Shown here: positions 47,001 through 64,000 of the stretch, piece after piece
Numbering within the stretch: the stretch's first letter is position 1
How the letters are laid out: every line of letters begins with the position of its first letter
IMG/VR virus record: IMGVR_UViG_3300027976_000036
Coordinates: 143-64,142 of that record
Direction: 5' to 3' (one strand)
DNA from: a virus
Taxonomy: Duplodnaviria; Caudoviricetes
Length of the DNA: 64,000 nt
The notes under the pieces: generated by a model
What the model saw: only the letters and a program-made list of their open reading frames with translations
The model's database searches: none
What the model was told of the DNA's origin: nothing
Made by a program: the position numbers and the translations under genes

Positions 47001-50000
47001 AAATTCTGGTGAACTCCTTGCATTTTTTTGTTAACAACTTGAAACGCTTTTAGGATATCTTCTTTTTCTGGGTCTTGTGATAGTCTGCCCACAATGTCAT
47101 TGAGTTTTAATACAAATCCTGACAATATATTATTTGAGAACGCATTAATTTCTTTTGCAAATTGAGACTCTCCATAATCAACTTTAGTAATTCCAAAATC
47201 ATTATTGTTAATATGAAAATGAATTTCAGCCATAGCTGAAGTCAACACCTTGAGATAAAACGTCATTTCATCTTCGTTCACTTTAGACAACAAAGGATTA
47301 TTTGTTTTTAGTGTAGAAAATTGATTAAGAATTCCGAGATTGTAAATCATTCTTTGATTTATAACTCTTGGAATGTCTTGAAATTGTAAATTCTCTTTAC
47401 TGACAGGTGTTACTGTTCTTTTTAGTAAATCATAATCCCCAAACATAAAATTATATATAATAGAATTGTGTTCTACATTTGCTTTTGGAAGCACCGTAAT
47501 TGGAAATACGTTACTAGAAACGCTCTGAATCTTTTTAGATAATAATGAAATTGGCTCCAATTTCACTTTAGAGATATTTCCAATTACTTCCAAAAGTTTA
47601 GGGATTTCTATACCCAATTCTTTATAGTTTTTTGCAAGATCATATGGCGTGAAGAAAACCTGCAAAGATGGATTTCCTGTTTTAATAATATCTAAATTGT
47701 CAATATCAATAATTTTACTATTTGTTGCGGTATTTGTTCTTTTTGCAAATTCAGATAGTTGGTTTAGATATTCATACATTTTAAGCTTCATTCTTAATTC
47801 CAATTCTTCTAACTTGGAATTGAAATTGGCGGTATTTTCAATTGATTCTCTAATATTATCACTTTCTTCATTGTATGAATTTTCATACAAGTGATTAATT
47901 TCTCTAGATACGACGAGAATTTCTTGACGTAAAGAGTTTTTACTTGGTGCTCTTGTCGCCGTTATTTGAGAAATTCTCCACTCTTCTTCTTTCGCTATTA
48001 ATTCTTTTTCTAATTTGTTTTTATGGTAATTAAGAGATTTAATTTCTTGCTTATCAGAAGTTGTAATAAGTTTTTCTTTGATTTTTTCTAAAGATTTTTC
48101 TAGTTTTTCAGCTTCTTTTTCTGCTTTATCTGCTTTATCTGTGGATACATTAGTATAAAACTGGGGAATGGCTGGGTTCTTATCGTCAAATCCTGTATTC
48201 TGTAGTAAGTCTAACAGCATTTTAGAAATACCAGAAGCGGCATCTTGTTTTTTAAATAAATTAATAAACTTAGAAAATCCTTGCATCATTGCATTTATTT
48301 CGCTGGAGAAGAATTCCACATCGTTAAATTCATAAATTGATTCCAATTCATTTAATAACAGTTCTACTTCAAGTCGTTTGCTTACATCTACTACATATTT
48401 ATTATCTTCAGGGTTCAATGATTTAAAGAGCCTATCTCTAACTGCATTCACATAATATACAATATACAATAATGAAAAACTAATATATTCATTTTCATTT
48501 TCTAAATCACCAATTATATATTGGTTATTATTTAAGTTAGAGTAATCCTGTTTTCTTGTGATCGTTGTGAAGACGTCTAGGACTGCATTGAGGGCGTCTT
48601 GGTGCTCTTCGGGTATGACTAGTTGATCAGGGGCACCCATAGTGCTCTTGATTGTTTCTAGGCGTCTTCTCTTCTCTTTTTCTACATAGGCTCCTGTTTT
48701 CTCAAACTGTCTAGCGGCCTCATCAACAAACTTGAATTCTTTTTGAGTTTTGTCAAATGCATCAAATGTTGATCTTAGAAATAAATCCCCATTTTTAATA
48801 GGTCCTGAAACTTGTTCGAAATAATCCTTCCATTCATTCTTAATTGAATCTAATTGTTGGAAATCTTCTTCGGTCAAGAATTTTTTAATATAGAAGTTTG
48901 GAGCAATATTAAACTTTTCACTACTTGTTTTTGCATTCTTAAGTGTAAATGGAAGCAAATCTAATCTTGAAATTTTTTCATCTGTTAATTTTGAAGTTAA
49001 TATATTAGAAATTCTATCAACAGTATCTTTCCCAATTTTGGAATTAATAATATTTAAACTTCTTAGAATATTTAAATCAGTTCTGTTCAAATCTAAGACA
49101 GTTAAAATATTAGCAATTTTAACAATTTCAACATTTAGTTCATCTGAAACCTCTGGAGTTTCTTTGATTTCTTCATGAATACTCTTGATTTTATCAGTAA
49201 TACCATCTTTTACTGTATTCGTAATTCTCAAATTATGAATAATAAAACAAAGAGTTTTATGATCATTTTTCAGGATATCGATTAGATTGTTTTTAACATC
49301 TAGTGTTCTTGTATTCATCCCTTCTAAGGCTCTAGTAGTTTGGTTATTAAAAGCTTTCGCATCTTTAATAAGAAGATAGATTCTATTTAACCTTTCGTTC
49401 ATTTTTTTAACATCATAAACTTTAAATTTATTTAATATGTTATTTTGATCTTGAAAGATTTTATTAATTTTATTAATATCGAAATAAAATTCACCTTGTT
49501 TATAATATTTACTAATATATTCGAATTTTGTTTCTGGTTTATTAATTTCCGAACCCGCAAGTTCACAAAGAATGTTGATTAATTTTCTGAATATTTTATC
49601 TTCATTTGAATCAAATTTTTCAATAAAATCTTCTTTATTGTTAATAAATCTAAAATTCATTAATAATGATTCTTTATTAACTAAGAAATCAATTGAAATA
49701 AAATCTTCATAATACTTAATTTTCTGATTAACATTATCTAATTTGTCGATTTCTTTATCTATTTCTTCTTGAATTAAAGCAATTGTGTTGGGGTTATTGT
49801 TCTCCACAATATATCTATTAAGGTCTTTAATTTCTTCTTTGTCAAAAATAAATTTTGACAATTGAATATAATATTTTTTGTCACTACCTTCGCTTGGAAA
49901 ATTCTCTTCAAATGATTCAATTGAATCTGAGTTTTTTAATCTTCTTATGAGATCGGTACTTCCATCAATTTTATAAGATAGTTTTTGGCGTTCATGTAAT

Positions 50001-50341: not shown

Positions 50342-50493
50342 TACTTTATATTCCTTTGAGCGCAAGTGTACTCATGATAAATAGTCTAAGAAGGTGCTAA
50401 ATTAAGCTTTTCTTGGACTATTGATGTAAAAATGGTGCATGGAATACCATGTCATTGCACCTTGCGCAGCTATTATGATTCTCACAGTGAAAC

Positions 50494-50898: not shown

Positions 50899-50936
50899 AT
50901 AAAAAAAATGGAAAAAGCCGAAACTTTTTCCATTTT
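50899..50936 (-). terminator. Intrinsic terminator
   Basis: AAAATGGAAAAAG-TTTCGG-CTTTTTCCATTTT plus a T-run on the - strand. Confidence 0.7.
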
Positions 50937-52178: not shown

Positions 52179-52272
52179 AAACACAAGAATCTTCATAAGA
52201 AAATTTTCTTTGTGTATATAAGAATTTATTTTATCTTCAATTAACATTCTTTTCAGATGAAATTTTCTTCAT

Positions 52273-52332
52273 ATAATGTACTCCTATATACTGCGACATT
52301 GCAGAATGTGAGGCACATGTGCCTCATTCGTT
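52273..52332 (-). repeat. Element 1
   Basis: + strand aatgtactcc...ctgcgacattgcag...tgaggc/gcctca-ttcgtt. Confidence 0.9.
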
Positions 52333-53041
52333 ATTCTTCGTCTTCATCATCATCATCAGGTGGATATAATTTCGCATATTGTTCATCAACAAGATGCATG
52401 AAATTGTGTCCAAGCGATGTACGAAACCTGGAGTTAAATGTTTGGGTTAATTCTTCGAATTCTTGATATTCCAATGGAATATCAAGCCTTATACATTCTT
52501 CAATAGAATGTATAATCGCATCATACTCACAGTGTTGTGATATAATAATGTTTAAGTTGTCATCAACATGGTGTTCAGCGTGGAACAAATCGTGAAAAAA
52601 CCACGAAATATTTTCGTATTTCATGACAATTTGAATTTTTCTAGTCCCATGTTCATTCCACCAATAAACAAAAGGTATTAATACATCGACTTTTTCTTCA
52701 AGAATAATTTGCCTATTTTTGTTGTTTATATAGAATCCATTTGCCGAAAACCGGCGCTTTTTCCATTTGCTTGGAAATTCATCATCATCTTCCTCTTCTG
52801 GATTCATGTATGGAATGAATGAATATGGCCAATCTTCTTCACCCATTCCCCACCTTATGATTGTATCATAATCTGGCATTTTTTCTTTGTTTTTATTGCA
52901 ATACCTCTTGTAAGCATCAAATGCTGACTTTGGTATTACCGTTTCATTTAGGCCGATTTCCCCGTTTCCAAAGCTTGAAAAATTCGTTGATTTTTTAAAG
53001 ATAAATTCAATTTTATCTTTGTCTACTGTATGGTATTCCAT
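52331..53041 (-). CDS. Hypothetical protein with HDLFH (HExxH-like) motif
   Basis: Start reassigned to MEYHTV using the element RBS. Stop overlaps element 1. Confidence 0.75.
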   Translation of the reverse strand: MEYHTVDKDKIEFIFKKSTNFSSFGNGEIGLNETVIPKSAFDAYKRYCNKNKEKMPDYDTIIRWGMGEEDWPYSFIPYMNPEEEDDDEFPSKWKKRRFSANGFYINNKNRQIILEEKVDVLIPFVYWWNEHGTRKIQIVMKYENISWFFHDLFHAEHHVDDNLNIIISQHCEYDAIIHSIEECIRLDIPLEYQEFEELTQTFNSRFRTSLGHNFMHLVDEQYAKLYPPDDDDEDEE

Positions 53042-53100
53042 AATGTACTCCTTAGTCATAGCAACATTGCTGTGAAATGGGAAATTAATCCCAAGTCGTA
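53042..53100 (-). repeat. Element 2
   Basis: aatgtactcc...catagcaacattgctgtg...tggga/tccca. Confidence 0.85.
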
Positions 53101-53103
53101 GAT

Positions 53104-53727
53104 TTATTTCAGATATTCTTTTGTTACAAGGCGCTGTAACGAAGCCATCGCGTCTTTAATGGCTTCTCTTTCTGAAGTAATACCGTCGCCTGATTCAATG
53201 ACGTCACCATCTTCATCTTCAATAGTCCATAGAAAGAACGAATCATGAGTAAAACCCTCTCTGTGTTCAACTATCTCAACACACAGAGCACTGAACATTT
53301 TCTCAAAGTTGTCTTTTGAGTATTTCGAATCTTTTCCAAGAACCCTTTCTGAGTGATTGTTCCAAAAATTGGAAGTTTCCTCTCTTTTGATGTAGAAAAA
53401 CCCAAATAAACCTGTGTCCCAACCACTAGCACATACGCTAGTATGCATGGTTAGTCCACTATGGTCAGTGGCGGAAATGCAATACACATGATACCCTCTT
53501 TCTTCCCCAAAGAGATTAACCATTTCTTCTATACTTTCACAATCAAAATTTGCAAAATCAACTCCCAAAGGTTTAATTTTGTCTATATTGGATTTTGGTC
53601 CTTCATAAGACTTGTGAAAACTACAAAATCCAATTCCATAATCCAAAATTTCGTCTTGAAAAAGTTGGGTTACTAGATCTTGCGAGCATTCCATGTCTTC
53701 TTGAACGGTAATTTTGTACTTAATCAT
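53104..53727 (-). CDS. Conserved phage/MGE hypothetical protein (DHSG...WD-x-G family)
   Basis: ATDHSGL...GWDTGLFGF motif. Confidence 0.7.
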   Translation of the reverse strand: MIKYKITVQEDMECSQDLVTQLFQDEILDYGIGFCSFHKSYEGPKSNIDKIKPLGVDFANFDCESIEEMVNLFGEERGYHVYCISATDHSGLTMHTSVCASGWDTGLFGFFYIKREETSNFWNNHSERVLGKDSKYSKDNFEKMFSALCVEIVEHREGFTHDSFFLWTIEDEDGDVIESGDGITSEREAIKDAMASLQRLVTKEYLK

Positions 53728-53784
53728 AATGTACTCCTACATACTGCGACATTGCAGCATATGAGGCTAAATGCCTCATTCGTT
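53728..53784 (-). repeat. Element 3
   Basis: ctgcgacattgcag...atgaggc/gcctcat-tcgtt. Confidence 0.9.
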
Positions 53785-54247
53785 AAGATAGTGTTTTGTT
53801 ATAAACAAAGCTCTCATATTCATGTAAAGCTGTTTCAGCTCTTTGGTATAAGTCTCTGGCTTCTGAGAAAAATGCCGATATCGACACCAGGTGGTTTGGT
53901 ATCGATATTAATGCATTTTCAATTGCAATGTCTCTATTTTCAAAGTGTTCAGCGTTCAGAACACTGTTCAAAGCACTTTTGATTTTCTCTAGGTGCATTG
54001 AGCAAAAATATATGGCCGATTCTATTGGCGTTGCTCCTATTTTTGACCAAATAACAGGAAGAGAGCTTTCTTTAATTAAAGAATTGATAATCTTCAACAT
54101 TGCTTCGCAATTGGTTTCGAACCTACAAATTGACATTATACTTTTGTTTGATTCCCAAAAAGAATACAAGAATTGTATTTCCTTTTCAAAATCGTCATTT
54201 TTGTGGTACGCCTGTATCATTTTTGACTCATTCTTAAATTTAGACAT
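53783..54247 (-). CDS. Hypothetical protein
   Basis: Bounded exactly by elements 4 and 3. Confidence 0.75.
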   Translation of the reverse strand: MSKFKNESKMIQAYHKNDDFEKEIQFLYSFWESNKSIMSICRFETNCEAMLKIINSLIKESSLPVIWSKIGATPIESAIYFCSMHLEKIKSALNSVLNAEHFENRDIAIENALISIPNHLVSISAFFSEARDLYQRAETALHEYESFVYNKTLS

Positions 54248-54311
54248 ATTGTTTCCTTACAAACAGTAGCAACATTGCTACATTATCCAACATTTCTGTT
54301 GGATATCGGTT
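54248..54311 (-). repeat. Element 4 (variant)
   Basis: gtagcaacattgctac...tatccaaca/tgttggata-tcggtt. Confidence 0.8.
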
Positions 54312-54322
54312 TAAAAGATGGT

Positions 54323-54865
54323 TTAAAAAAGAGGAACTTTTTCCAATCTTTTTAAGGAATCGTTTTCGAAATCCTGCGCAAAATTGTTATACTTTGCAAT
54401 CAGGTTTTCCAATTGTCCCTCTAAGTCTCTTGCACCATACATGAGGACTTCTATCTCATAAAATTCAGCCGCCAGCCTCTCAAAAACATAATCAATCAAA
54501 TTTCTGTTTTTTTCTGATTCGACAATGTCAAGGTTTTCGAATTGTGTTTGCCATGGAGTAAAATACTTAATCCGATCACACATCAAATCTAATAACCAAA
54601 TAATCCGGAATATAGAATGCCTATATGCCTCTTCTGGATCTCCATGGAGTTCTTTAGAATTTTCATTTTTCTGTGACTTGAAGAATTTTGAGATCATAAG
54701 TTGAAACAACAATTGCAACACATTTGCCGTCTCAACTCTAGTGACATAACCCGTATCCGTTTTCGGAGTGTGTCCAACTGACACTAGATATTTTTTCATA
54801 ACACTAAAGTCTTTCTCGAAGCCTGTAATGTTATTGTAAATCACAACCGTTTTTCTTTCGTTCAT
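54323..54865 (-). CDS. Hypothetical protein
   Basis: Starts at the element 5 RBS. Confidence 0.75.
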   Translation of the reverse strand: MNERKTVVIYNNITGFEKDFSVMKKYLVSVGHTPKTDTGYVTRVETANVLQLLFQLMISKFFKSQKNENSKELHGDPEEAYRHSIFRIIWLLDLMCDRIKYFTPWQTQFENLDIVESEKNRNLIDYVFERLAAEFYEIEVLMYGARDLEGQLENLIAKYNNFAQDFENDSLKRLEKVPLF

Positions 54866-54926
54866 AACGTACTCCTAGATATCTGCAACATTGCAGAATA
54901 TCTCGGCATTTCTGCCGAGATTCGTT
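54866..54926 (-). repeat. Element 5
   Basis: atctgcaacattgcaga-atatctcggcatttctgccgaga-ttcgtt. Confidence 0.95.
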
Positions 54927-54988
54927 TAATTATTCGAAGCGACGATTTACAATTTTTTTCTTACCACTTTTAAACCCCTAAAACCAAT

Positions 54989-55180
54989 CTAACGGATCAA
55001 ATTCTGGTTTTGGTTTGGTTTAATTCCTGCTGCAAGCAAAGCAAATATTGCCAAAGGACCAAAAAGCCAACCAAAGAAGGACCAACTTCCGGCGCAGCGA
55101 TTATATCTATTAGCAAGTATTGCTGCTATAATAGCAAAGTAGAATGAGAACATAATTATAATAAACCAATATTCGTTCAT
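54989..55180 (-). CDS. Small membrane protein, homologous to 33563-33841
   Basis: Two TM segments and NR...WSFFGWLFGP. Confidence 0.7.
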   Translation of the reverse strand: MNEYWFIIIMFSFYFAIIAAILANRYNRCAGSWSFFGWLFGPLAIFALLAAGIKPNQNQNLIR

Positions 55181-55242
55181 AATGTACTCCTAGATATTCT
55201 GCAACATTGCAGAATATCTCGGCATTTCTACCGAGATTCGTT
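55181..55242 (-). repeat. Element 6
   Basis: Perfect 11-6-11 palindrome agatattctgc-aacatt-gcagaatatct plus the ctcgg hairpin. Confidence 0.95.
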
Positions 55243-55675
55243 AACGAATAAAATATTGGTTAAGATATGTGATAAACATATTAGTTACACGCACTCTATC
55301 ATCTAGCTCAAATCCACACACGGTGGGATCGCCCAAGAAGTTGCGCACTGCACCTTCGTAATCCGTTAAGTTTGCGCACAGTACGCTGTCATAGCAATAT
55401 GACATAAATTTCGCAGGTGAAATTTTAATCAGTTCTCGCCATTTGTCTTCTTTTTCTTGAAAAGAAGACAAGTCAATTAAGCTACTAAGTTCTTTTTCCT
55501 TGTCGCTTAACTCAAAGATTTCGTGGGGCAAAATCTTTAATTGATTCAAAATTTTGATAGAAGTAGCTTGAGCTACTTCTATTTCTTCTATTAGGCTTCT
55601 CCTTTTTTCGAAATCATTTTTGATTGTTTCGATTTTGTTCTTTAACAAGTTTATCTTATATTCTAGTTCTTTCAT
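55241..55675 (-). CDS. Hypothetical coiled-coil protein
   Basis: Bounded exactly by elements 7 and 6. Confidence 0.75.
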   Translation of the reverse strand: MKELEYKINLLKNKIETIKNDFEKRRSLIEEIEVAQATSIKILNQLKILPHEIFELSDKEKELSSLIDLSSFQEKEDKWRELIKISPAKFMSYCYDSVLCANLTDYEGAVRNFLGDPTVCGFELDDRVRVTNMFITYLNQYFIR

Positions 55676-55735
55676 AATGTACTCCTAGATATCTGCAACA
55701 TTGCAGTATATCTCGGCATTTCTGCCGAGATTCGT
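55676..55735 (-). repeat. Element 7
   Basis: Near-identical to element 5. Confidence 0.95.
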
Positions 55736-55856
55736 CTGATTATTCGCTTGGTATAGTCAATGTAAAATTGTGTTTCTTGAATGACTCTACTTTAGAAAAT
55801 ATAGATTGTGCTTTTTTAAGCGTTTCTTCTGATTTTTTAAGTGCTTCTTCTGATTT

Positions 55857-56462
55857 TTAATTGGCTGTACTCAGAGCCAATTCAGCTTTTTTAACTTTGT
55901 CGGTTGTAGATTGTATCGCAACAAATATAGTTTCAATGTCAGGTTTTTTTGTGAGACGATATTCTAACTCTAGAATCTCTTCTTCTAATTCATATGCCCG
56001 TATATGATGCCATACTTTTTCACCTGCTTTCTTAGAATAAAAATCAGCTTTTGCTTCTTCTTTTTTTGCCATAACTAAGTTATTTTGGACATAATAACGT
56101 TTCATGTTGTCGAGAGCCGTCTTAAATTTTTTTATATCAGAAGGTCGCGCTTTTTCTGCTCTATATTCTTTTACTTTTTGTTCATCCATTTGCGTTTGTA
56201 ACTTTTCCATTAGCTTATAATCTGATACTTGTGATTTATAATCTGATACTTGTGATTTATAATCTGATACTTGTGATTTATAATTTTGTGCTATTTGTGT
56301 CCATGCATCGGCATCTTCTTTATAAATCTTAGCTTCAGCGAGTAATTCTTCAACGACTCTTATTCTGTCTTTGTCTAGTGGTTCATTATCATCTGCATTA
56401 GCAGAACTAACACTTATGAATGAAAAAGCGACAGCACCAAGAATCTTACAAAACTTATTCAT
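55857..56462 (-). CDS. Secreted coiled-coil protein, probably truncated by a premature TAA
   Basis: Signal peptide MNKFCK...SSANA. The frame stays open for 38 more codons to 55740. Confidence 0.75.
   Translation of the reverse strand: MNKFCKILGAVAFSFISVSSANADDNEPLDKDRIRVVEELLAEAKIYKEDADAWTQIAQNYKSQVSDYKSQVSDYKSQVSDYKLMEKLQTQMDEQKVKEYRAEKARPSDIKKFKTALDNMKRYYVQNNLVMAKKEEAKADFYSKKAGEKVWHHIRAYELEEEILELEYRLTKKPDIETIFVAIQSTTDKVKKAELALSTAN
56215..56283 (-). repeat. 21-bp coding tandem repeat x3 (YKSQVSD heptad)
   Basis: ttataatctgatacttgtgat repeated. Confidence 0.9.
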
Positions 56463-56540
56463 GTTACTCCTAGATATCTGCAACATTGCAGAATTTTAGA
56501 ATATGATAAACAATTTGTCTGTTTATCATATTCTAAACGT
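56463..56540 (-). repeat. Element 8 (18-bp variable stem)
   Basis: atctgcaacattgcaga plus tttagaatatgataaaca / tgtttatcatattctaaa. Confidence 0.9.
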
Positions 56541-56546
56541 CATATG

Positions 56547-57701
56547 TTATGCGACGAGCTGATACAGATACTGAAGCGCAGGTTGCGCCGTCGTATCAGT
56601 GTTCAGTACATCCTCATAACGAGAACGCAATCGAACCGTCTCAAGATTTACGTCACCGGTGTATCCATGGATATTCGTTCGCTTGCTGCGAAGAGTCCAA
56701 GAGGTTACGCCTTGAGCCCACCCGAAAACCGTTGATGTGTCAATATCCTCGACACCCGGCTGATCATTGTCCAAGTGATTCAGAAAATCAACGTGAAGTT
56801 TTTCCAACGACTTCGTCTGGCGATCCGACAAATCATTGTCAGTCAGAGACTTGCCGAAAAGATTTGAGAAGAATTCCCTCTTTTCACTGTCAACAATCTT
56901 ACGGCTAAGCATCTTGTCCAAAGTCTTCTGATATTGAGACGTAGATTCCACTACGTCCACAAGCGAAGACTTCCAATCATCCAATAGGATATAAGCGTTT
57001 GCCGTGCGCTTTAGATTACCATTTCCAATGGCGGCTTGGGCCTTTACGTGCATCATCGTATTCATGCACACGGTAGCCATAATGGTCTTTCTTGGACTAA
57101 GCGCCATCGAACCATCAAGGCTACCCATGATGGTCAAAAGATACGCATTTCCGTCCGCGAAACCACCTTCCCCAATATCTCCAACGAGATACTGCATACA
57201 GGCTTTCGCCCCATTGTCAAAAACAATCAATCCAAAAGGAATGAGTGCTTCTTCCAATTCTTTAGGCGGAAGAAGAGCATTCTCCCAACTAAAATTGGCC
57301 CATGACGCGCTGACAGAAGCATTCATTTCGAATTGCTTCTCCCCCCAAGTTGCGACAACTTGGGAACCACTTGTAGGAAGATATAATCCCGGATTCTTCA
57401 CACTTGGCATTACCCGTGGCAACACATGGATTCCGAAGTTTTCGGAATCCAGTCCAACCTTTTCCAATAACTGCAAACCAGAAGTAGGAGTTTCCTCCAT
57501 AACTTCTCCCAAACCGTGCCAAGCTTTTCCGGCCTGTGGACTAAAAACCGCAGCAAATCCAAAGGCATGACCATTCGGATTATCGGTAGTGACATCTTCG
57601 CTACCGATTGCCAACTTAGAAACCTTAGAAGCCTTAGCGGGCTTCTCGATGTCGAAGTTGGTATTAGCGAAGATACTGGCGATAGAATTGGTATTCGACA
57701 T
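56547..57701 (-). CDS. DUF932 / TIGR03299-like phage-plasmid protein
   Basis: AWHGLG, S-x-DGS, TVCMNT, T-x-FGW-x-QGVT motifs. Confidence 0.8.
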   Translation of the reverse strand: MSNTNSIASIFANTNFDIEKPAKASKVSKLAIGSEDVTTDNPNGHAFGFAAVFSPQAGKAWHGLGEVMEETPTSGLQLLEKVGLDSENFGIHVLPRVMPSVKNPGLYLPTSGSQVVATWGEKQFEMNASVSASWANFSWENALLPPKELEEALIPFGLIVFDNGAKACMQYLVGDIGEGGFADGNAYLLTIMGSLDGSMALSPRKTIMATVCMNTMMHVKAQAAIGNGNLKRTANAYILLDDWKSSLVDVVESTSQYQKTLDKMLSRKIVDSEKREFFSNLFGKSLTDNDLSDRQTKSLEKLHVDFLNHLDNDQPGVEDIDTSTVFGWAQGVTSWTLRSKRTNIHGYTGDVNLETVRLRSRYEDVLNTDTTAQPALQYLYQLVA

Positions 57702-57735
57702 TATTTACTCTCTTTCGAATGTATGTTTAACAATC

Positions 57736-58026
57736 TCAACTAATCTTGTGCAAGAGTTTGTACAAGATTTCTAAATCCCTTTCGATTTCAGATTGTATAC
57801 TTGGTAGCAATGAGTCGTGCTTCATTATAATACCTGTTTCCAGGTTGAGCGTCATTGTCAAGTAATCATCTACATCGTCAGGACAATATGCTTCAATCAA
57901 GTTAGAATTTCCAACTATCACTATCGCATAATTTTCATTTACGAATGTAATATGTTCTTCCCCGCTTTCTATACACATAAAAACTTTCATGTGCGAGAAA
58001 ATGATTTTTAAATTATCGCATATCAT
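57736..58026 (-). CDS. Hypothetical protein
   Basis: Starts at the element 9 RBS (AAGGA). Confidence 0.65.
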   Translation of the reverse strand: MICDNLKIIFSHMKVFMCIESGEEHITFVNENYAIVIVGNSNLIEAYCPDDVDDYLTMTLNLETGIIMKHDSLLPSIQSEIERDLEILYKLLHKIS

Positions 58027-58086
58027 GATCCTTCTCAGCCCTTGGTAACATTTCCAAGGATATCAGAAATTAATCTGATATTCGGT
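58027..58086 (-). repeat. Element 9 (divergent; stem fully replaced)
   Basis: ccttgg-taacattt-ccaagg plus atatcaga/tctgatat-tcggt. Confidence 0.7.
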
Positions 58087-58089
58087 ACT

Positions 58090-58290
58090 CTAACAAAATT
58101 TACGATAGCCATGAACTTGTGTAAACTCATAAACTTCGTAATATACATTACTGGGGCATGGTTTTTGATTGTGTTTGTATTTTGCCTTTAGCGCAGCCTC
58201 AAAACTCTTATGTCTTGAAATATAAGAGTTTACTGGTTCATTATTTATTTCGCAAAATACAAAAAAATATCTTCTGTGAGGATATCTCAA
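58090..58290 (-). CDS. Hypothetical protein
   Basis: TTG start coupled to the upstream stop. Confidence 0.55.
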   Translation of the reverse strand: MRYPHRRYFFVFCEINNEPVNSYISRHKSFEAALKAKYKHNQKPCPSNVYYEVYEFTQVHGYRKFC

Positions 58291-58766
58291 ATTTCTTCTC
58301 CTGTATCTCTTAAGATTCGTATTGTGAAATCATGAATGTGAGATTGATGAAGCAATTTTGCTTCTCTAATCTTTTCTTCGTTCTTAGAGTTCATAAGTAA
58401 AAATTCCGAGAACAAAGTTATATATCTTTGAATCTCGAAAAGGATACTATGAATCTTGTCAAGACTTTCTTGTGTAAGCATATCATCAATATATAGCATG
58501 ATGAATGTTGGCACTTGCGATACACAAAACTCTAACGAGTCTTTTGTTGTGTCCAAGACAGTTTTGTACTTTGGGCAGTAACCCGAAAAGTACTTCCTCT
58601 CATAATCTGAAAGTACGATTCGTGCCAACTTCTGTAAAAATATTTTCTCTTTAGGATCATCCTCCCTTTTGGACCTATTCCAAATTTTCTGGAAGATTTT
58701 CCAATTCTCAAGGTTTTCCTGGGGGATGTTAATTGTTGTCTCTTGGGTAGTTTTGATTATTTCCAT
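58287..58766 (-). CDS. Hypothetical protein
   Basis: Starts at the element 10 RBS. Confidence 0.75.
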   Translation of the reverse strand: MEIIKTTQETTINIPQENLENWKIFQKIWNRSKREDDPKEKIFLQKLARIVLSDYERKYFSGYCPKYKTVLDTTKDSLEFCVSQVPTFIMLYIDDMLTQESLDKIHSILFEIQRYITLFSEFLLMNSKNEEKIREAKLLHQSHIHDFTIRILRDTGEEI

Positions 58767-58829
58767 GATGTACTCCTAGAAATCTGCGACATTGCAGAAT
58801 ACGAACCCCGTGAAAAGGGTTCATTCGTT
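58767..58829 (-). repeat. Element 10
   Basis: tctgcgacattgcaga plus gaaccc/gggttc-attcgtt. Confidence 0.9.
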
Positions 58830-58831
58830 TG

Positions 58832-59329
58832 TTAGATATTTGTATCATCAGATAACTTGACGATATAAGAATGATATGCGTCTTTCGCATTTTCCATGGC
58901 CACGAGAAATCCATTTGATTCATTGATTACATTCTGGATTCTGTCTAAAATCCAACTCACACGCACGCAAACGTTTTTATATTCTTCAAAAGCTTGCTCG
59001 TTAAGCGCATAACTGTTTATATTAAACGACATCAAACTTTTTACGTTTGATATTGCCATGTTTATTCTGGTGTAATACCAAAACATAGCTTTTTGTTTAA
59101 GAGAGAGAACTAAGTATTCTTCTTCCTCTTTTTCAACTGAGAAATATTGAAACTGCACGTATTCCAATAGATCAGAAATGACACTGAGAATGAATTCATT
59201 CTCATAAAAATTTTCAGTATCCTGATAAAGCTTTATTCTTTGGAATAGACGTTGAACGTTTCCAAAAGATTTTTCGAATTCATAATTATTATATATCTCA
59301 ATTGAAAGCTCTTTCATCAGATTAGACAT
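58832..59329 (-). CDS. Hypothetical protein
   Basis: Start reassigned to MSNLMKE using the element RBS. Confidence 0.75.
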   Translation of the reverse strand: MSNLMKELSIEIYNNYEFEKSFGNVQRLFQRIKLYQDTENFYENEFILSVISDLLEYVQFQYFSVEKEEEEYLVLSLKQKAMFWYYTRINMAISNVKSLMSFNINSYALNEQAFEEYKNVCVRVSWILDRIQNVINESNGFLVAMENAKDAYHSYIVKLSDDTNI

Positions 59330-59388
59330 GATGTACTCCTTAGTAATAGCAACATTGCTATATTTGCCAACAGATGTTGGCAATCGTA
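59330..59388 (-). repeat. Element 11
   Basis: atagcaacattgctat plus ttgccaac/gttggcaa-tcgt. Confidence 0.9.
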
Positions 59389-59838
59389 TTATGTTTTTGT
59401 TATCTCAATCTCATACATGGCGACCAACATTCCTAGATTATCCTCCGCATCTTGTTCCGCTTTTTTGAAAAAAGTGAGTCTCTTCACAAACTCGCGAAAC
59501 TTAGATAACTCGACATTAAGGATTTCATAGTTATAGTTTTCATGACTTGGAAAGCCTGTGCCATTTTTGATGTATGCTTCATCGACATTGTCAACTTCTT
59601 GTTGTATTCTCATTAAGAAGTTGTTAATAACATTGCTGATGCCATGATCGGCATAGCTTTTTGTTTTATCATCTTTTTGGAAATGCTCCTGTCCGGAGAT
59701 AGTTGCATAACTAATTGCTCTTAAATAAAAGAGAGCTAGATTTACTTCCATGATTCTGTGATGGTGAAATTTCTTCCACGCGAAAGTTATGTCTTCCAAT
59801 AATAATTGGGAACAAAATTTGAATTTAACGTTAGACAT
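59389..59838 (-). CDS. Hypothetical protein
   Basis: Bounded by elements 12 and 11. Confidence 0.75.
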   Translation of the reverse strand: MSNVKFKFCSQLLLEDITFAWKKFHHHRIMEVNLALFYLRAISYATISGQEHFQKDDKTKSYADHGISNVINNFLMRIQQEVDNVDEAYIKNGTGFPSHENYNYEILNVELSKFREFVKRLTFFKKAEQDAEDNLGMLVAMYEIEITKT

Positions 59839-59901
59839 GATATACTCCTTGGATACTGCGACATTGCAGAATATGAATCAATTTTCATTGATTCATTCGT
59901 T
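59839..59901 (-). repeat. Element 12
   Basis: ctgcgacattgcag plus atgaatcaat/attgattcat-tcgtt. Confidence 0.9.
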
Positions 59902-59903
59902 GA

Positions 59904-60176
59904 TTATTTAGAAATATTTTTTAGCAATATTTCTTGCAAAATAAGAAGCTTTTCTAAATTTTCTTCTTCTTCTCTATGGTATCGGAACTTTTCCCTATCA
60001 AATCCTTTATAAAAGACTAACCACTGACTATTGAGAGTCAGTCTTTTCTTTAAATCGATAATTGTTTTTTCGGCAATTAAGATTGCCACTTTTGATTCTG
60101 GAGACATTTTATTATTTTCCTTCGAATCAGCTTTTTCAAGCTCTTCGAACCAATTGAAATTGTAGTCTTCTTTCAT
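59904..60176 (-). CDS. Hypothetical protein
   Basis: Bounded by elements 13 and 12. Confidence 0.75.
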   Translation of the reverse strand: MKEDYNFNWFEELEKADSKENNKMSPESKVAILIAEKTIIDLKKRLTLNSQWLVFYKGFDREKFRYHREEEENLEKLLILQEILLKNISK

Positions 60177-60240
60177 GATGTACTCCTAGATATGCTGCAA
60201 CATTGCAGCATATGAATCCCTTTTACAGGATTCATTCGTT
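60177..60240 (-). repeat. Element 13
   Basis: atatgctgc-aacatt-gcagcatat plus atgaatcc/ggattcat-tcgtt. Confidence 0.95.
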
Positions 60241-60731
60241 TATCCTTCGATGGCTACCAACTTTTGATCGAAGTCTGTGGGCATATCCTCTTGCCAATTT
60301 GGAAATCCGAATTTGCAGAAAACATCATCGAAACTTGACACCAAATTGATTCCGTAGACGACGGTCAACTCGGCGTCTCCGTATGAAAAATCCGCGTTTA
60401 ATTCCAAACGCTCCATGAATTCACTTTGCACATCAAAAGCATACTTCTGTTCAAGATTGTAAAGCAAATCGTTGATGTGCAGAATTTCAAAGTCCGTATG
60501 GGTGACTTCCTTGCTCCAAGCATTCAGAGTTTGAAGGTCTTTGAGTTCTTTCAACTGTGAACTCAAAGTCTTCACAATCTCTTTGAGTTCAAAAGTTGTC
60601 TCAAAGACGCTTTGCTCAAGCGTCTTCAAGTTTGCAATGTTTTCCTCTAGATCTTTCCCATATTGAGGAATCAAAGCATTCAGTGTAGCAATGCTGGCGG
60701 TTAATGCTTTCTCTTTGTTGTCAATTTCCAT
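60240..60731 (-). CDS. Hypothetical coiled-coil protein
   Basis: Bounded exactly by elements 14 and 13. Confidence 0.75.
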   Translation of the reverse strand: MEIDNKEKALTASIATLNALIPQYGKDLEENIANLKTLEQSVFETTFELKEIVKTLSSQLKELKDLQTLNAWSKEVTHTDFEILHINDLLYNLEQKYAFDVQSEFMERLELNADFSYGDAELTVVYGINLVSSFDDVFCKFGFPNWQEDMPTDFDQKLVAIEG

Positions 60732-60796
60732 ATTGTACTCCTAAATATACTGCAACATTGCAGCATATGAATCCTGTAAAAAAGGATTCATTCGTT
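60732..60796 (-). repeat. Element 14
   Basis: ctgcaacattgcag plus atgaatcc/ggattcat-tcgtt. Confidence 0.95.
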
Positions 60797-61071
60797 TAAC
60801 AAGAATATTGTGCACAGACGATGTGGAAATCGTCATAATCATCTTCTGCGAATTTGCAGACGATTCCCCAGAAGATAGTTGCATGTTCTGCAAATTGCCA
60901 ACCTTCTTCTGAAGTTGGCATCATATCATTGATATCGTAACAATTGTTACGATATCGAAAGAAACTGGCATCTGTATCAGGTTTTCTATAGTGATCGAAA
61001 TCACTTTTCTCTTCTTTTGTCAGATCGTTCCAACAAAGGATTTTGCATTTTTCTGAATTCTTAATTTCCAT
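60796..61071 (-). CDS. Conserved small phage protein
   Basis: W-x-DLT-x-x-E...FFRYR-x-x-x-Y-x-I-x-D pattern. Confidence 0.7.
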   Translation of the reverse strand: MEIKNSEKCKILCWNDLTKEEKSDFDHYRKPDTDASFFRYRNNCYDINDMMPTSEEGWQFAEHATIFWGIVCKFAEDDYDDFHIVCAQYSC

Positions 61072-61135
61072 AATGTACTCCTGGATATCTGCGACATTGC
61101 AGTATATGAATCAATTTTTCATTGATTCATTCGTT
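61072..61135 (-). repeat. Element 15
   Basis: atctgcgacattgcag plus atgaatcaat/attgattcat-tcgtt. Confidence 0.95.
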
Positions 61136-61302
61136 TAAAGATTTCTTTCTATCCTCCTTAATTTACCTTTTGGAATTCGAGAAGCAATTGCGTCTCTAAT
61201 TTCTTTTAAATCTTTAATTTTTTGTTCTTTTGTTATTGCATGATTAGTGATATCACTAATCAGACATTCAACCATGATTAAAATATCTTCAAGAGATTCC
61301 AT
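61135..61302 (-). CDS. 55-aa hypothetical protein (not in the ORF track)
   Basis: MESLEDILIMVECLISD...RRIERNL*. Start and stop sit exactly at elements 16 and 15. Confidence 0.75.
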   Translation of the reverse strand: MESLEDILIMVECLISDITNHAITKEQKIKDLKEIRDAIASRIPKGKLRRIERNL

Positions 61303-61367
61303 AATATACTCCTGGATATCTGCGACATTGCAGCATATAGAACCCTTTTTATAGGGTTCTGGGCGTT
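61303..61367 (-). repeat. Element 16
   Basis: atctgcgacattgcag plus agaaccct/agggttct-gggcgtt. Confidence 0.9.
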
Positions 61368-61822
61368 TAGTTTTCTTTCAGGTACTGAGCCATCATTCTC
61401 TCGATGGAAGCCATAGGAACGCTATGTACGTTCCTCTCAGCGAATTTTCGACAGAGTTCGTCCCTCTTCAAAGAGGTTGACAAATCGAACTCTTCGAATA
61501 GATTGACGAACTCGACATTATATCCTCGTTTTTCCGCAAAATAAGTATACTGTTTCCAATGAACTTTCATTATGTTCGTGTTGTTCACGAACACATATGG
61601 GGTAAAACTATCCAAAGCTGCCACGAATTTTTTGAAGCAACTGCCATGAGCAGTTGCCAATTGGGCGGGGTTCCAATCATAATGACCATTTTTCATGAAA
61701 TGATCATCTGCCGAGCAGACGACCATTTCTTCAGTTGACAGTTGCATTTCCTTTCGGAAATTGTCGATAAAGAAATCTTTGCCCATTCCGGGCACGCCTT
61801 GCATGATATAAACGGTGTTCAT
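61367..61822 (-). CDS. P-loop kinase (AAA_33 / N4BP2-like polynucleotide kinase)
   Basis: GVPGMGKD, CSADDHF, AH-x-x-C, VNNTN, RNVHSVP. Confidence 0.85.
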   Translation of the reverse strand: MNTVYIMQGVPGMGKDFFIDNFRKEMQLSTEEMVVCSADDHFMKNGHYDWNPAQLATAHGSCFKKFVAALDSFTPYVFVNNTNIMKVHWKQYTYFAEKRGYNVEFVNLFEEFDLSTSLKRDELCRKFAERNVHSVPMASIERMMAQYLKEN

Positions 61823-61883
61823 TATACTCCTTAGCTAATAGCGACATTGCTATGTTTCCCAATGCTTTCATTGGAAATTCGTT
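61823..61883 (-). repeat. Element 17
   Basis: atagcgacattgctat plus ccaatg/cattgg...ttcgtt. Confidence 0.85.
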
Positions 61884-61888
61884 AATCA

Positions 61889-62218
61889 TTAATCATGCAC
61901 AGCGATTAGAAGGTCTTCGAAAAGAACTCCTAACTTTTTCTGTACTAAGTTAATCCAACTCTTGTTCCCTTCATACGAAGAGACTTCCAAATCATCTAAA
62001 ACATGATTTACTATGGGTATTATATCCATTCCCGTCAATATGCAATATTGGAACTTTCCAATATCAAAGCATTCGTCCGTTTTTTCTAACAATACGGACT
62101 CGAAATCTTCTGGGTCAGTGACCCCGTTCAGTTCGCTAAGTGAATTGAACACGATTTCTGAAAATCGCGAAAACATGATTACTTCGATATTTTCAAAGTT
62201 CTTTTTATTTTTCTTCAT
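61889..62218 (-). CDS. Hypothetical protein
   Basis: Bounded by elements 18 and 17. Confidence 0.75.
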   Translation of the reverse strand: MKKNKKNFENIEVIMFSRFSEIVFNSLSELNGVTDPEDFESVLLEKTDECFDIGKFQYCILTGMDIIPIVNHVLDDLEVSSYEGNKSWINLVQKKLGVLFEDLLIAVHD

Positions 62219-62290
62219 AATGTACTCCTAGATATCTGCGACATTGCAGCATATGAATCAATTTTTCATTGATTCATTCGTTCGTTCGTT
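62219..62290 (-). repeat. Element 18 (TTCG end triplicated)
   Basis: Near-identical to element 15, ending ttcgttcgttcgtt. Confidence 0.95.
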
Positions 62291-62502
62291 TAGATATAAA
62301 ATCTACACTTTTGGTGTAAATCCCAAATTCTCCACTTGAAATCATAAGAGATTTCAAATCTTATAATCATTTCTTCGAGCATGTCCACCGTGAGACACAG
62401 AGATGTTTCAAAAGGACTCTTATTTGCCTTGTCCATCAAGAAGTTCCTAAGCTCTCTTATAAAGCTTAGTTTTTCTTCCCAAGTCAATTCTGATACTTTC
62501 AT
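62290..62502 (-). CDS. Hypothetical protein
   Basis: AAAGGA RBS. Stop abuts element 18. Confidence 0.7.
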   Translation of the reverse strand: MKVSELTWEEKLSFIRELRNFLMDKANKSPFETSLCLTVDMLEEMIIRFEISYDFKWRIWDLHQKCRFYI

Positions 62503-62559
62503 TTTTTTCCTTTACAATATTTTTGAATGAAATATTTATTCATTCATTCGATTTTTTTA

Positions 62560-62615
62560 AAAATAAAATAAATAAATGTTGGGAAGTTTTATTTTCCCAA
62601 CATTTATTTTATTTT
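62560..62615 (-). terminator. Long AT-rich hairpin / probable terminator
   Basis: aataaatgttgggaa...ttcccaacatttatt flanked by A/T runs. Confidence 0.6.
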
Positions 62616-62616
62616 G

Positions 62617-62844
62617 TTAGTGAATCGTCGGGTTGGAGCTCATGATCCTTTGCTCTTCAGCAAGAAATCCGCCGATGTTTCCGTCGAGAAACATCTTAAT
62701 GGCCCATTTGCACTTGGAGAGAATCTTGTTCTCACTTTCCCCTTCGAAATTGCCGAGAGTCTTCAGCGTTTCCGCTGCTGCTATCATCACGAACATATTG
62801 GCCGCGAGGCCAATGGCCTCCAACTTCACACATTTCTCACACAT
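62617..62844 (-). CDS. Hypothetical protein
   Basis: TAGGA RBS; downstream of type-B element 1. Confidence 0.65.
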   Translation of the reverse strand: MCEKCVKLEAIGLAANMFVMIAAAETLKTLGNFEGESENKILSKCKWAIKMFLDGNIGGFLAEEQRIMSSNPTIH

Positions 62845-62862
62845 TTTTTTTTCCTAAATTTG

Positions 62863-62935
62863 TTTTACTTTTGAATGATATACTCAAAAGCCGGCATGAT
62901 TGCCAGTTCCCAACCTTTAAAAGTTGGGAATCGTT
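62863..62935 (-). repeat. Type-B element 1 (three hairpins)
   Basis: cttttga-atgatatac-tcaaaag, ggca-tgat-tgcc, ttcccaac/gttgggaa-tcgtt. Confidence 0.85.
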
Positions 62936-63366
62936 TAGTATTCTGTAAATTGGACGAAGGAGAAGGTCGAGACCTTCTCCGTCGTTCCGTCTTCTTTTAC
63001 GACTTCCGAGCTTTTGCGCTCGGAAGTCGCATAAAATGCGGTTTCGCCTTGGTCTGAGATCATTTCGACTAAGTTGTGGACAAGGCCAAAGTGGCCTTGA
63101 ACTAGATATTGGAGATGACTGCGGCCGAACTCCTTATTAATCTTAGGTTGTGGATAGATTTGGTCCAAGATAGTGTTTAATGTGTTTCGCGCAAGTTGTC
63201 GCACTTGCATTCGTGTGAAAGAAGGGTCTACGTTCGGCATCAAATACGCGAAGCACATTATGCTTCGGTCTTTATCATCGTCCTCTCTAAGCGGCATATT
63301 CTGTGCCGCTTCTTTCTGTTCTTTGCTCCACTTACTAACAGGATGATTTGTTAAATTAACAAACAT
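62935..63366 (-). CDS. Csx20-like (CARF-related) putative cyclic-oligoadenylate ring nuclease
   Basis: NLTNHP-x-x-KW-x-x-EQ, PNVDP, LVQG-x-FG, YATSER, E-DG...K-x-S-x-F-x-FVQF-x-EY match my recollection of the Csx20 family. GGAG RBS before MFVNL. Confidence 0.7.
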   Translation of the reverse strand: MFVNLTNHPVSKWSKEQKEAAQNMPLREDDDKDRSIMCFAYLMPNVDPSFTRMQVRQLARNTLNTILDQIYPQPKINKEFGRSHLQYLVQGHFGLVHNLVEMISDQGETAFYATSERKSSEVVKEDGTTEKVSTFSFVQFTEY

Positions 63367-63386
63367 TTTTCTTTCTCCAACATTTA

Positions 63387-63459
63387 TTTTACTTTTGAAT
63401 GATATACTCAAAAGCTGACATGATTGCCAGTCTCCCAACTTTAAAAGTTGGGATTCGTT
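63387..63459 (-). repeat. Type-B element 2
   Basis: Near-identical direct repeat of 62863-62935. Confidence 0.85.
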
Positions 63460-63464
63460 AAAAG

Positions 63465-63536
63465 TTAAAGTAGAACCAATATCATCGGGCTAAAGAATAG
63501 CCCAATGATTGCCATGGAAAAGATAAACATTTTCAT
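63465..63536 (-). CDS. 23-aa hydrophobic peptide MKMFIFSMAIIGLFFSPMILVLL
   Basis: AAGGAATCATT-ATG RBS resembles the element RBS. Stop lies 5 nt before type-B element 2. Confidence 0.5.
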   Translation of the reverse strand: MKMFIFSMAIIGLFFSPMILVLL

Positions 63537-64000
63537 AATGATTCCTTGAGAGTCAATTGGAGAGGATTCTCCATTTTGGAACAAAATGTTTCACTGTGAA
63601 ACAAAATGTTCCGTTGTTTCAATTGTCTAACCTGGAAAACTTTAATAAAATCCAAGGTTTGTGACATTCAACATTGCAGATATTAATCAATGCAACGTTT
63701 CGCCATTAAAGGTGGCGAGTTTTTGAAACTGTAAGTATATGATTATATTGGGTATATTGAGTATATTTGAGCAATATGGGGATTAACAAATCCACCCACA
63801 CTTTTCTAAACTTTTCTCAAACTTATCAACTTTATTCAATTAAATCAAATACTCACAGCTTGGCAATATCGCCAAGTGAGACACACTGAAACACTTGAAA
63901 CAAAACGTTTCAAATGTTTCAATATGTCCCTTCGGAACAAGTTTTATATCATTTTCTAAACCATCGCTGGTCCTCTCTTTATGCACTGTTAATCTTATTA

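Follow-up and report, generated by a model that had tools for sequence, protein, structure and literature searches.

A repeated two-hairpin intergenic element in a one-way block of unrelated genes of an uncultured freshwater phage

The window analysed here is a stretch of 64,000 nt (positions 143 to 64,142 of the IMG/VR virus record IMGVR_UViG_3300027976_000036). It covers nearly all of a 64,142-nt record, which has a CheckV completeness of ~29% and is present in three freshwater metagenome runs (X1, X2 and X3). Between 52.3 and 63.5 kb, all genes and all copies of a repeated intergenic element lie on the minus strand. The element is a module of 55–98 nt that occupies nearly all of the intergenic space of this one-way gene block and reads, in the coding direction, stop codon, (A)ACGAAT, hairpin 1, hairpin 2, 7–9 nt, AGGAG, TACATT and ATG. 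A preliminary description, made from the letters alone, had counted 18 copies of one type (type A) and two of another (type B), all in one orientation and filling most spacers, and this is confirmed by the core counts, the covariance model and the spacer lengths given below. The stop codons that it had placed at the upstream edge of several copies (52331, 53783, 55241, 60240, 60796, 61135, 62290 and 62935) are indeed the 3′ ends of open reading frames (ORFs). The locus contains the following features, listed in the coding direction after an entry for the array as a whole.

52273–63464, minus strand: the whole array, ~23 ORFs with 18 type-A and 2 type-B elements in a single orientation
63537–64000, minus strand: non-coding leader upstream of the array, with three GAAACAAAAYGTTYC-type palindromes and a hairpin-2 remnant
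63897–63911, 63598–63612 and 63578–63592: the GAAACAAAAYGTTYC-type palindromes of the leader
~63669–63679, minus strand: the partial hairpin-2 remnant, CTGCAATGTTG, in the leader
63465–63536, minus strand: first ORF, a hydrophobic peptide of 23 amino acids (aa)
63367–63464, minus strand: type-B copy 1, with three hairpins and a weak Shine–Dalgarno (SD) sequence
62933–63463, minus strand: variable cassette (type-B copy 1 and a 143-aa gene), absent in the strain contig L013 and in contigs of X1 and X2
62845–62934, minus strand: type-B copy 2
62560–62612, minus strand: canonical intrinsic terminator inside the array, a 16–17 bp stem followed by a T run (scan match 62570–62609)
62219–62289, minus strand: type-A copy 1 (62.3 bits)
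61823–61888, minus strand: type-A copy 2, stem TAGC/GCTA (40.2 bits)
61303–61366, minus strand: type-A copy 3
61072–61134, minus strand: type-A copy 4
60732–60795, minus strand: type-A copy 5
60177–60239, minus strand: type-A copy 6
59839–59903, minus strand: type-A copy 7
59330–59388, minus strand: type-A copy 8, stem TAGC/GCTA
58767–58831, minus strand: type-A copy 9
58027–58089, minus strand: type-A copy 10, degenerate, with stem CCTTGG/CCAAGG, loop AAATGTTA and SD GAAGGA (30.2 bits)
56463–56546, minus strand: type-A copy 11, with an 18-bp hairpin 1
55676–55740, minus strand: type-A copy 12; the 116 nt upstream (55741–55856) are an open C-terminal continuation of a 201-aa gene
55181–55240, minus strand: type-A copy 13
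54882–55197, minus strand: tentatively variable cassette (63-aa membrane gene and one element equivalent), from one X3 contig
54866–54935, minus strand: type-A copy 14
54248–54322, minus strand: type-A copy 15, stem GTAGC/GCTAC and SD AAGGAA (35.1 bits)
53728–53782, minus strand: type-A copy 16
53042–53103, minus strand: type-A copy 17
52273–52330, minus strand: type-A copy 18; after it, 10 codons (MKKIS...) are left of a 164-aa gene, which the strain contigs L022 and L017 have intact

The core of hairpin 2, GCAATGTYGC, has 17 exact matches in the window, every one of them minus-strand and within 52293–62247; 100 shuffles contained 0.16 matches on average and never more than 2. The block of SD, spacer and start codon, AGGAGTACATTATG, is matched 16 times with at most two mismatches, compared with an expected 0.32, and 14 of these matches fall in the array. 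The covariance model R1, which spans hairpin 2, SD and ATG, was built from the 18 type-A copies; run with filters off, it returns 18 copies (30.2–62.3 bits, all minus strand, 52272–62260), which are the same copies as its training set; the runner-up in the window reaches 15.9 bits (E 0.14), and there are zero copies in the other 52 kb, where the preliminary description had not seen the element either.

Spacer lengths were taken after correction of four ORF starts that the mechanical ORF list had extended upstream. They are 55–84 nt for 16 of the 18 type-A copies, and the element fills the spacer. One of the two long spacers measures 181 nt because a premature TAA ends the 201-aa gene early. 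Contigs of X1 and X3 have TTA at this codon (55857–55859, minus strand), past which the frame stays open for 38 more codons, and the next TAA lies 4 nt before the ACGAAT of the next element; the TAA is a nonsense variant or an error in the window. The earlier picture of ~20 genes, each delimited by an element, stands as far as the one-way array of unrelated genes is concerned, but there are ~23 ORFs and three of them lack an element, namely the one at 62502, which follows the canonical terminator, the one at 58290, whose start overlaps, and the one at 57701, whose spacer is 34 nt. Two parts of the consensus are also looser than first stated. The AACGAA said to be often fused to the stop codon is present as ACGAA in 13 of the 20 elements and as ACGA in 16, and in the AGGAG-TACATT-ATG block, conserved as an SD and start, only about half of the copies have an exact TACATT. 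Type-B copies start with ACGAWT and have hairpin 1, a diverged hairpin 2 and a third hairpin.

The cargo genes are mutually unrelated, as had been noted: an all-against-all BLASTP of 25 proteins gave a best E of 0.004. Curated Pfam cut-offs are reached by two of the 22 cargo proteins scanned, with AAA_33 (kinase-like) and DUF932, and nothing here shows the early or anti-defence roles that had been proposed for the cargo. Only two other homologues of the DUF932 protein were found (58% and 49% identity, the latter on a 77-kb contig), and single-protein and alignment-based scans of IMG/VR returned no locus. The cargo protein encoded at 55857–56462 (minus strand) has a signal-peptide-like N-terminus and three tandem YKSQVSD repeats, and small hydrophobic peptides are encoded at 54989–55180 and by the first ORF.

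Folding of the type-A spacers beats that of dinucleotide shuffles in 18 of 18 cases (z −1.3 to −5.8, mean −3.45). Hairpin 1 is present in every type-A copy as a stem of 5–18 bp with at least 12 different sequences, and hairpin 2 has an AATGTY loop with G:C and C:G closing pairs that are invariant or nearly so, which agrees with the variable first hairpin and the almost invariant loop of the second in the preliminary description. The outer stem of hairpin 2 varies by compensatory pairs (CTGC/GCAG, TAGC/GCTA, CCTTGG/CCAAGG), both sides changing in five of eight pairs. In its alignment 86.0% of cells are paired, compared with 78.6 ± 1.2 in shuffles (0 of 500 reach 86.0%) and with 17–57% when the partners are slid. 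The linker of 7–9 nt between hairpin 2 and AGGAG is the least conserved part, while AGGAG and the spacer to the ATG, a distance of 4–8 nt, are conserved. The combination of a conserved top and SD with a free hairpin 1 and linker and with compensatory pairing reflects selection for a fold whose top is sequence-specific, not recent copying, and the invariant GC-AAUGUY-GC top implies a specific reader.

These features bear directly on the least probable explanation that we considered, in which the element has no specific function and either arose as one intergenic region was serially duplicated or gene-converted or is a small selfish repeat, its copies being kept alike by recombination. Neighbouring copies at 55.7, 55.2 and 54.9 kb do share identical hairpin-1 variants, which points to local duplication or conversion, but the sharply uneven conservation within copies, the compensatory pairing and the exact position relative to stop and start in every copy argue against it. 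Identical variants are also found at distant sites, at 62.2, 61.1 and 59.9 kb and, for another variant, at 60.2 kb and in an insert of L022 described below. Compensatory stem changes are equally unexplained if the site acts as duplex DNA, as do the operators called stoperators. A repressor or regulator bound to GCAATGTYGC would then block or modulate elongation, which would account for the single orientation, the position at gene boundaries and the invariant asymmetric 10-bp core, a layout shown by the 13-bp stoperators of Cluster A mycobacteriophages as they are presented, for contrast, in PMC3203893; the AATGT/ACATT-rich palindromes of the leader point the same way. We consider a duplex operator very unlikely, since it also leaves the structure-only hairpin 1 and the fixed spacing to SD and ATG unaccounted for, and no repressor or lysogeny gene was seen in the 64 kb.

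As for the strand that folds, the sense strand is more stable than the antisense strand in 14 of the 18 type-A copies (one tie, three reverse), and GAAA tetraloops occur on the sense strand in five of the 18 type-A hairpin 1s. The two type-B hairpin 2s have two differences, both of which are pairing-neutral only via G-U on the sense strand, and pairing in the extra type-A copy of L022 is likewise held only through sense-strand G-U. Read from sequence, these hints favour a coding-strand RNA without proving it. In the antisense direction, five copies (plus strand; 52308–52327, 54900–54921, 58803–58822, 60212–60235 and 62906–62931) pass the terminator scan with hairpin 1 and the TTCGTTTA behind it, which is the complement of TAAACGAA, and the conserved ACGAA motif could double as a weak antisense terminator tail.

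Comparison with known classes of element gave no match. A search of Rfam, proposed in the preliminary description, found no family at its gathering score; the matches Ref1C (31.1 bits, gathering 90) and mir-15 (21.2 bits, gathering 57.3) are chance-level and neither lies on the element. That description had also seen neither an attC fold nor −35/−10 boxes, and both observations held. Sigma-70-like sites overlap only two of the 18 type-A copies, at different positions, and the conserved block has no −35/−10; attC boxes (RYYYAAC/GTTRRRY) occur in one of 20 copies, inside hairpin 1 of type-A copy 15. On the coding strand, 0 of 18 hairpin 1s pass the terminator scan because they lack a T run, and canonical terminators with a stem and T run are used inside the array and before the giant gene that follows it.

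The most serious mechanistic rival, by analogy, is a hairpin promoter of the phage N4 type. N4 early promoters are described in PMC4496689 as small hairpins with a conserved loop and loop-closing G:C and a stem that is free if paired; there are three of them in N4, the GC-rich heptamer being centred at −11, and transcription starts eight nt downstream of the hairpin (PMC4496689). Applied to the array, hairpin 1 would end the upstream transcript and hairpin 2 would be an extruded-DNA-hairpin promoter independent of sigma-70. Transcripts would then start a few nt before or at AGGAG, each cassette would be its own early unit, and the polymerase could be carried by a 5,095-aa ORFan. Hairpin 2 has an N4-like pattern, with its invariant GC-AATGTY-GC, covarying outer stem and 7–9 AT-rich nt, and in the account of the promoter-stem-loop (PeSL) cassettes of T4-type phages the stem-loop, promoter and SD come in the same order (PMC2839356). 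In addition, that giant ORF, which has no assigned function, lies ~2 kb downstream of the array on the same strand. In Pfam, PHROGs, PDB sequences, 5.8 billion proteins and the ESM Atlas it shows no detectable similarity to anything, virion RNA polymerases included, although the fast divergence of such polymerases makes this a weak argument. The array has 18 copies with an AU-rich AAUGUY loop of 4–6 nt, compared with the three promoters and GC-rich heptamer reported for N4, and no virion RNA polymerase was recognised. A start 8 nt past the stem would also leave AGGAG at the extreme 5′ end of the mRNA, hairpin 1 has no T run although a canonical terminator is used in the same array, and the changes that preserve pairing only by G-U do so on the coding strand, not on the template strand. 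We regard an N4-style promoter as possible but unlikely.

Near-identical strains differ in gene content at the element. L013 lacks 62933–63463, that is, type-B copy 1 with the 143-aa gene, and its joint lies at AAC|GA, the 5′ edge of the element; the same segment is missing with the same joint, with 3 nt overlap, from Logan contigs of X1 and X2. Identity between L013 and the window is 93.8% upstream of the element at the variable cassette and 99.8% downstream, a jump that marks a mosaic boundary at the element. One X3 contig skips 54882–55197, which holds the 63-aa gene, and here the joint falls within 32 nt common to two neighbouring copies, between hairpin 1 and hairpin 2. Finally, L022 and L017 carry 1.09 kb extra after the last element (window 52257/52258), consisting of a 164-aa gene, a type-A copy (50.3 bits) and an 83-aa gene, and the window holds only the first codons of the 164-aa gene. 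Of the three events, two are bounded by elements, one of these being solid and the other tentative, and the third is unrelated to them. All three runs consist of contigs, and no back-joining joint is among those listed for them, which says nothing about circles either way. The alignment of strains that had been proposed as a check thus shows gene content varying at the element for the 143-aa gene, but not for the 1.09-kb indel. The joints of the two element-bounded events, the second of them tentative, map to different places within the element, a pattern better explained by homologous recombination than by cutting at a fixed site. It speaks against one fixed crossover point, and the dedicated capture system suggested earlier is not supported.

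Integron arrays are one-way series of unrelated, promoterless genes, each with a folded site that is conserved in structure and not in sequence. The present array resembles them in its one-way order of unrelated genes and its structure-conserved site, and one could imagine a folded recombination site for a dedicated recombinase, its gene lying in the 70% of the genome that was not sampled, by which genes are captured in an integron-like manner. The cassette-like layout, the structure-kept but sequence-free hairpin at gene 3′ ends and the solid joint exactly at AAC|GA with 3 nt overlap, despite longer shared stretches just downstream, would fit such a site, and only ~29% of the genome is in hand. 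However, the element consists of two independent hairpins rather than one bulged palindrome, it includes the SD of the next gene, and the R″/R′ boxes of attC are found in the single copy noted above. The attC crossover is fixed, whereas here the second joint, which is tentative, falls between the two hairpins and not at AAC|GA, and the third indel ignores the element. The preliminary description had seen no recombinase; the tyrosine recombinase model PF00589 has no match in the 64,142-nt record while 14 of 14 control genomes match, and the record contains no integrase, serine recombinase or resolvase and no reverse transcriptase. PeSLs, moreover, reach the same outcome by homologous recombination alone, as reported in PMC2839356. 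Integron-like capture is, in our view, more improbable still than a duplex operator. As a claim in its own right, that hairpin 2 is read by a dedicated phage protein, either as an N4-style promoter used ~20 times with its polymerase in the 5,095-aa ORFan or as a new recombinase site, seems to us quite unlikely, though less remote than either the operator or the capture explanation.

The closest known system is that of the PeSLs, repeats of ~100 bp around ORFans of T4-type phages that combine a stem-loop, a sigma-70 promoter and an SD (PMC2839356). They are reported to have consensus −35/−10 boxes with AT-rich sequence upstream and a terminator stem-loop rich in G/C, as shown with reporters (PMC2839356), and to mediate indels and mini-circles by homologous recombination (PMC2839356, PMC4122927). 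As in those accounts, the element is an intergenic repeat running from stop to ATG around ORFans in a variable region, here with 20 copies in 11 kb, and close relatives differ by indels with junctions in the repeats, here in one solid and one tentative case with a third indel elsewhere. Unlike the PeSLs as described, it measures 55–85 nt, lacks sigma-70 boxes and a T run behind hairpin 1, and has an additional hairpin whose loop is invariant. The PeSL stem-loop terminates or attenuates upstream transcription; here a stem-loop is present in 18 of 18 copies, and none passes the coding-strand terminator scan. The host phage also differs from T4-type PeSL phages in having a DnaE-type polymerase. 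Because its conserved part is a hairpin and the defining sigma-70 promoter is absent, the element is not a member of the PeSL family, but the system cannot be called undescribed, as it had been, since its logic is that of the T4-type cassettes (PMC2839356, PMC4122927).

A second comparison is offered by the start-associated sequences (SAS) and their extended form (ESAS) of Cluster K mycobacteriophages, where a conserved AGGAG motif stands immediately upstream of the start codon in some of the non-structural genes (PMC3203893). In that source the SAS is the 13-bp GGGATAGGAGCCC, in a single orientation and 3–7 bp before the start codon; about half of them have an upstream inverted repeat whose spacer is variable, the motif sometimes includes the upstream stop codon, and a role in translation initiation was proposed, with little support found for RNA hairpins (PMC3203893). 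Compared with this description, our element has only AGGAG and its position in common and differs in sequence from GGGATAGGAGCCC. The ESAS arms are conserved in sequence, whereas the arms here are free and covarying, and the SAS are scattered over half a genome while the element is arrayed between genes. The SAS are also not known to have a part in gene turnover.

We favour, with a probability of roughly 45%, the reading that the element is an mRNA-level intercistronic module which also supplies recombination homology, like the T4-type PeSL cassettes, and that an uncultured jumbo-type phage from freshwater carries the block as a hyperplastic operon of ORFans. Transcription would begin in the operator-rich leader at 63.6–63.9 kb and yield one or a few long transcripts of the array. 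This leader (63537–64000) is likely the regulated promoter region of the operon; its GAAACAAAAYGTTYC-type palindromes look like operators of a dimeric regulator, and the restriction of the three to 63.58–63.91 kb counts for a single leader. Other GAAACAAAAYGTTYC-type matches in the window (31398 and 51776) are chance-like, the total being 5 against 3.2 expected. Hairpin 1, directly after the stop codon and selected for structure only, would serve as a 3′ decay barrier or processing boundary of the upstream cistron. Hairpin 2, with its GC-AAUGUY-GC top and covarying lower stem, would form together with AGGAG-UACAUU-AUG a standard, context-insulated translation start, probably bound by one common phage or host factor, so that unrelated genes would receive the same expression and control. 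As the module is repeated ~20 times in direct orientation, it would also be a place for homologous recombination or replication slippage, by which whole genes could be added, deleted or exchanged with their expression intact. Whole-gene gain or loss at the element between natural strains is seen in one event, with a second that is tentative.

Intercistronic hairpins are familiar from the early genes of phage T7, where RNase III cuts them and leaves protective 3′ hairpins on the mRNAs. The T7 sites are single long irregular hairpins with no shared loop sequence or fixed link to an SD. Hairpin 1 of the present element, at 5–18 bp, is mostly too short for RNase III.

A number of observations weigh against the mRNA-level module. 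Transcript ends, processing and translation effects are all inferred. An automated wobble count over all helices (302 pairs) gave five G-U and three A-C on the sense strand, which is not decisive for the strand and so leaves room for a DNA hairpin, and the N4-like pattern of hairpin 2 counts on the same side. The loop AAUGU and the spacer ACAUU match over at least 5 nt in nine of 19 copies, at a chance rate of ~4%; a pseudoknot between the two shows no compensatory change and is kept as a possibility only. With regard to recombination, the X3 deletion is tentative, as it is seen in a single contig of depth 4.6 with 32 nt shared at the joint. Logan contigs are assembled with 31-mers, and because the shared stretch is about that size, assembly alone could have produced the joint. 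No element bounds the 1.09-kb indel, and the window form of 52257/52258 is bridged by no Logan contig among the matches listed. Lastly, relatives at ~43% polymerase identity have neither element nor cargo, and the strains available for comparison are all near-identical.

The element is apparently lineage-specific, being absent from two complete relatives and its core not enriched in five large ones. A pattern scan of IMG/VR found it in 0 other contigs, a blastn search of GenBank phages with one element gave just three chance-level matches (E 0.6), and 185,579 prokaryote genomes gave 0. Metagenome contigs yielded 15 loci, of which five are near-identical strains (L011, L013, L016, L017 and L022); two others, L009 and L018, were rejected as carriers, their matches looking like chance. 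The remaining eight (L010, L012, L014, L015, L019, L020, L021 and L023) represent one unrelated temperate-phage-like locus with Cro-like, Erf-like and replication genes (e.g. L015:2204–2248, minus strand). In these an identical 14-nt hairpin, CTGCAATGTCGCAG, directly follows a TTGACA-17-TAATAT promoter and is itself followed, after 7 nt, by AGGAGTA and the ATG of a small gene. There, CTGCAATGTCGCAG would be the 5′ end of the mRNA. The resemblance could be accidental, given that the search pattern imposed the match and that the eight belong to a single locus family; alternatively, it may reflect a shared host-linked RNA module.

In the five large relative contigs (~810 kb) the core has four matches, without enrichment, and R1 found nothing in the two complete relatives (best 19.6 bits), in which 11-mer counting also revealed no comparable intergenic repeat. 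The one clustered repeat of these relatives, AAGTCGGTGAT, with seven copies each in G001 (97.3–106.6 kb, L108–L109) and G002 (170.7–175.2 kb, L122), was considered and discarded as a counterpart of the element: it is the conserved start (M-K/Q-V-G-D-L-V) of small paralogous genes, whose stop/start junctions overlap. Literature searches with the core motif (four 10-mers) gave no relevant context among the matches listed, and those on phage intergenic repeats, stem-loop/SD arrangements and hairpin cassettes gave nothing closer than PeSL and SAS.

Outside the array, the record divides into a plus-strand half, which is a replication and nucleotide module, and a minus-strand half made up of a giant ORF and the hairpin array upstream of it.

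1–35 kb, plus strand: DnaB-like helicase, ribonucleotide reductase, PurA-family synthetase and DnaE-type polymerase
1–35 kb, plus strand: dUTPase, thymidylate synthase, GroEL, rIIA/rIIB and RNA ligase
35078–50365, minus strand: 5,095-aa ORF, ~2 kb downstream of the array on the same strand

By sequence, the phage is only distantly related to any cultured phage. Its polymerase is 25–28% identical to those of GenBank phage records, among the matches listed; in IMG/VR it matches 524 contigs, the best 80 of 524 at 41–43% identity; and a megablast of 24 kb of the window against GenBank phages gave no match. The two complete distant relatives, G001 and G002, have the replication module in common with it and contain none of the array cargo and no giant ORF. 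The PurA-family adenylosuccinate synthetase (5256–6347, plus strand) is assigned to the PurZ family by PHROGs (E 3e-60), while among NCBIfam models PurA scores higher (229 bits) than PurZ (107 bits), all under their cut-offs. A run of ATGAAGATGAA-type 6/12-nt repeats occupies 29424–29500 (plus strand), within or at the end of the rIIB-like gene region. The 5,095-aa ORF is preceded by a strong terminator at 50905–50936. It has no match in Pfam, PHROGs or PDB sequences, a search of 5.8 billion proteins returned only itself, and residues 1101–3140 have no match in the ESM Atlas. It is possibly a virion or ejection protein.

The ORFan regions of phages are where genes for host takeover and counter-defence turn over fastest. 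To our knowledge, the way in which new genes are slotted in with correct expression is known in detail only for the T4-type PeSLs. The array would represent the same solution, an expression adaptor that doubles as recombination homology, in an unrelated uncultured giant phage from freshwater. What is new is the molecular part list, with two hairpins and a fixed ribosome site in place of a sigma-70 promoter; the evolutionary idea has already been published. If hairpin 2 should nevertheless prove to be an N4-style promoter or a new recombinase site, the array would be a plug-and-play gene platform of a kind undescribed for phages outside Schitoviridae or integrons. Finding the reader of GC-AAUGUY-GC would give a new regulator–operator pair or a new promoter class. 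The element may serve as a compact natural insulator and ribosome-binding module for synthetic operons, and the array provides a marked list of ~23 candidate early or accessory genes for functional screening.

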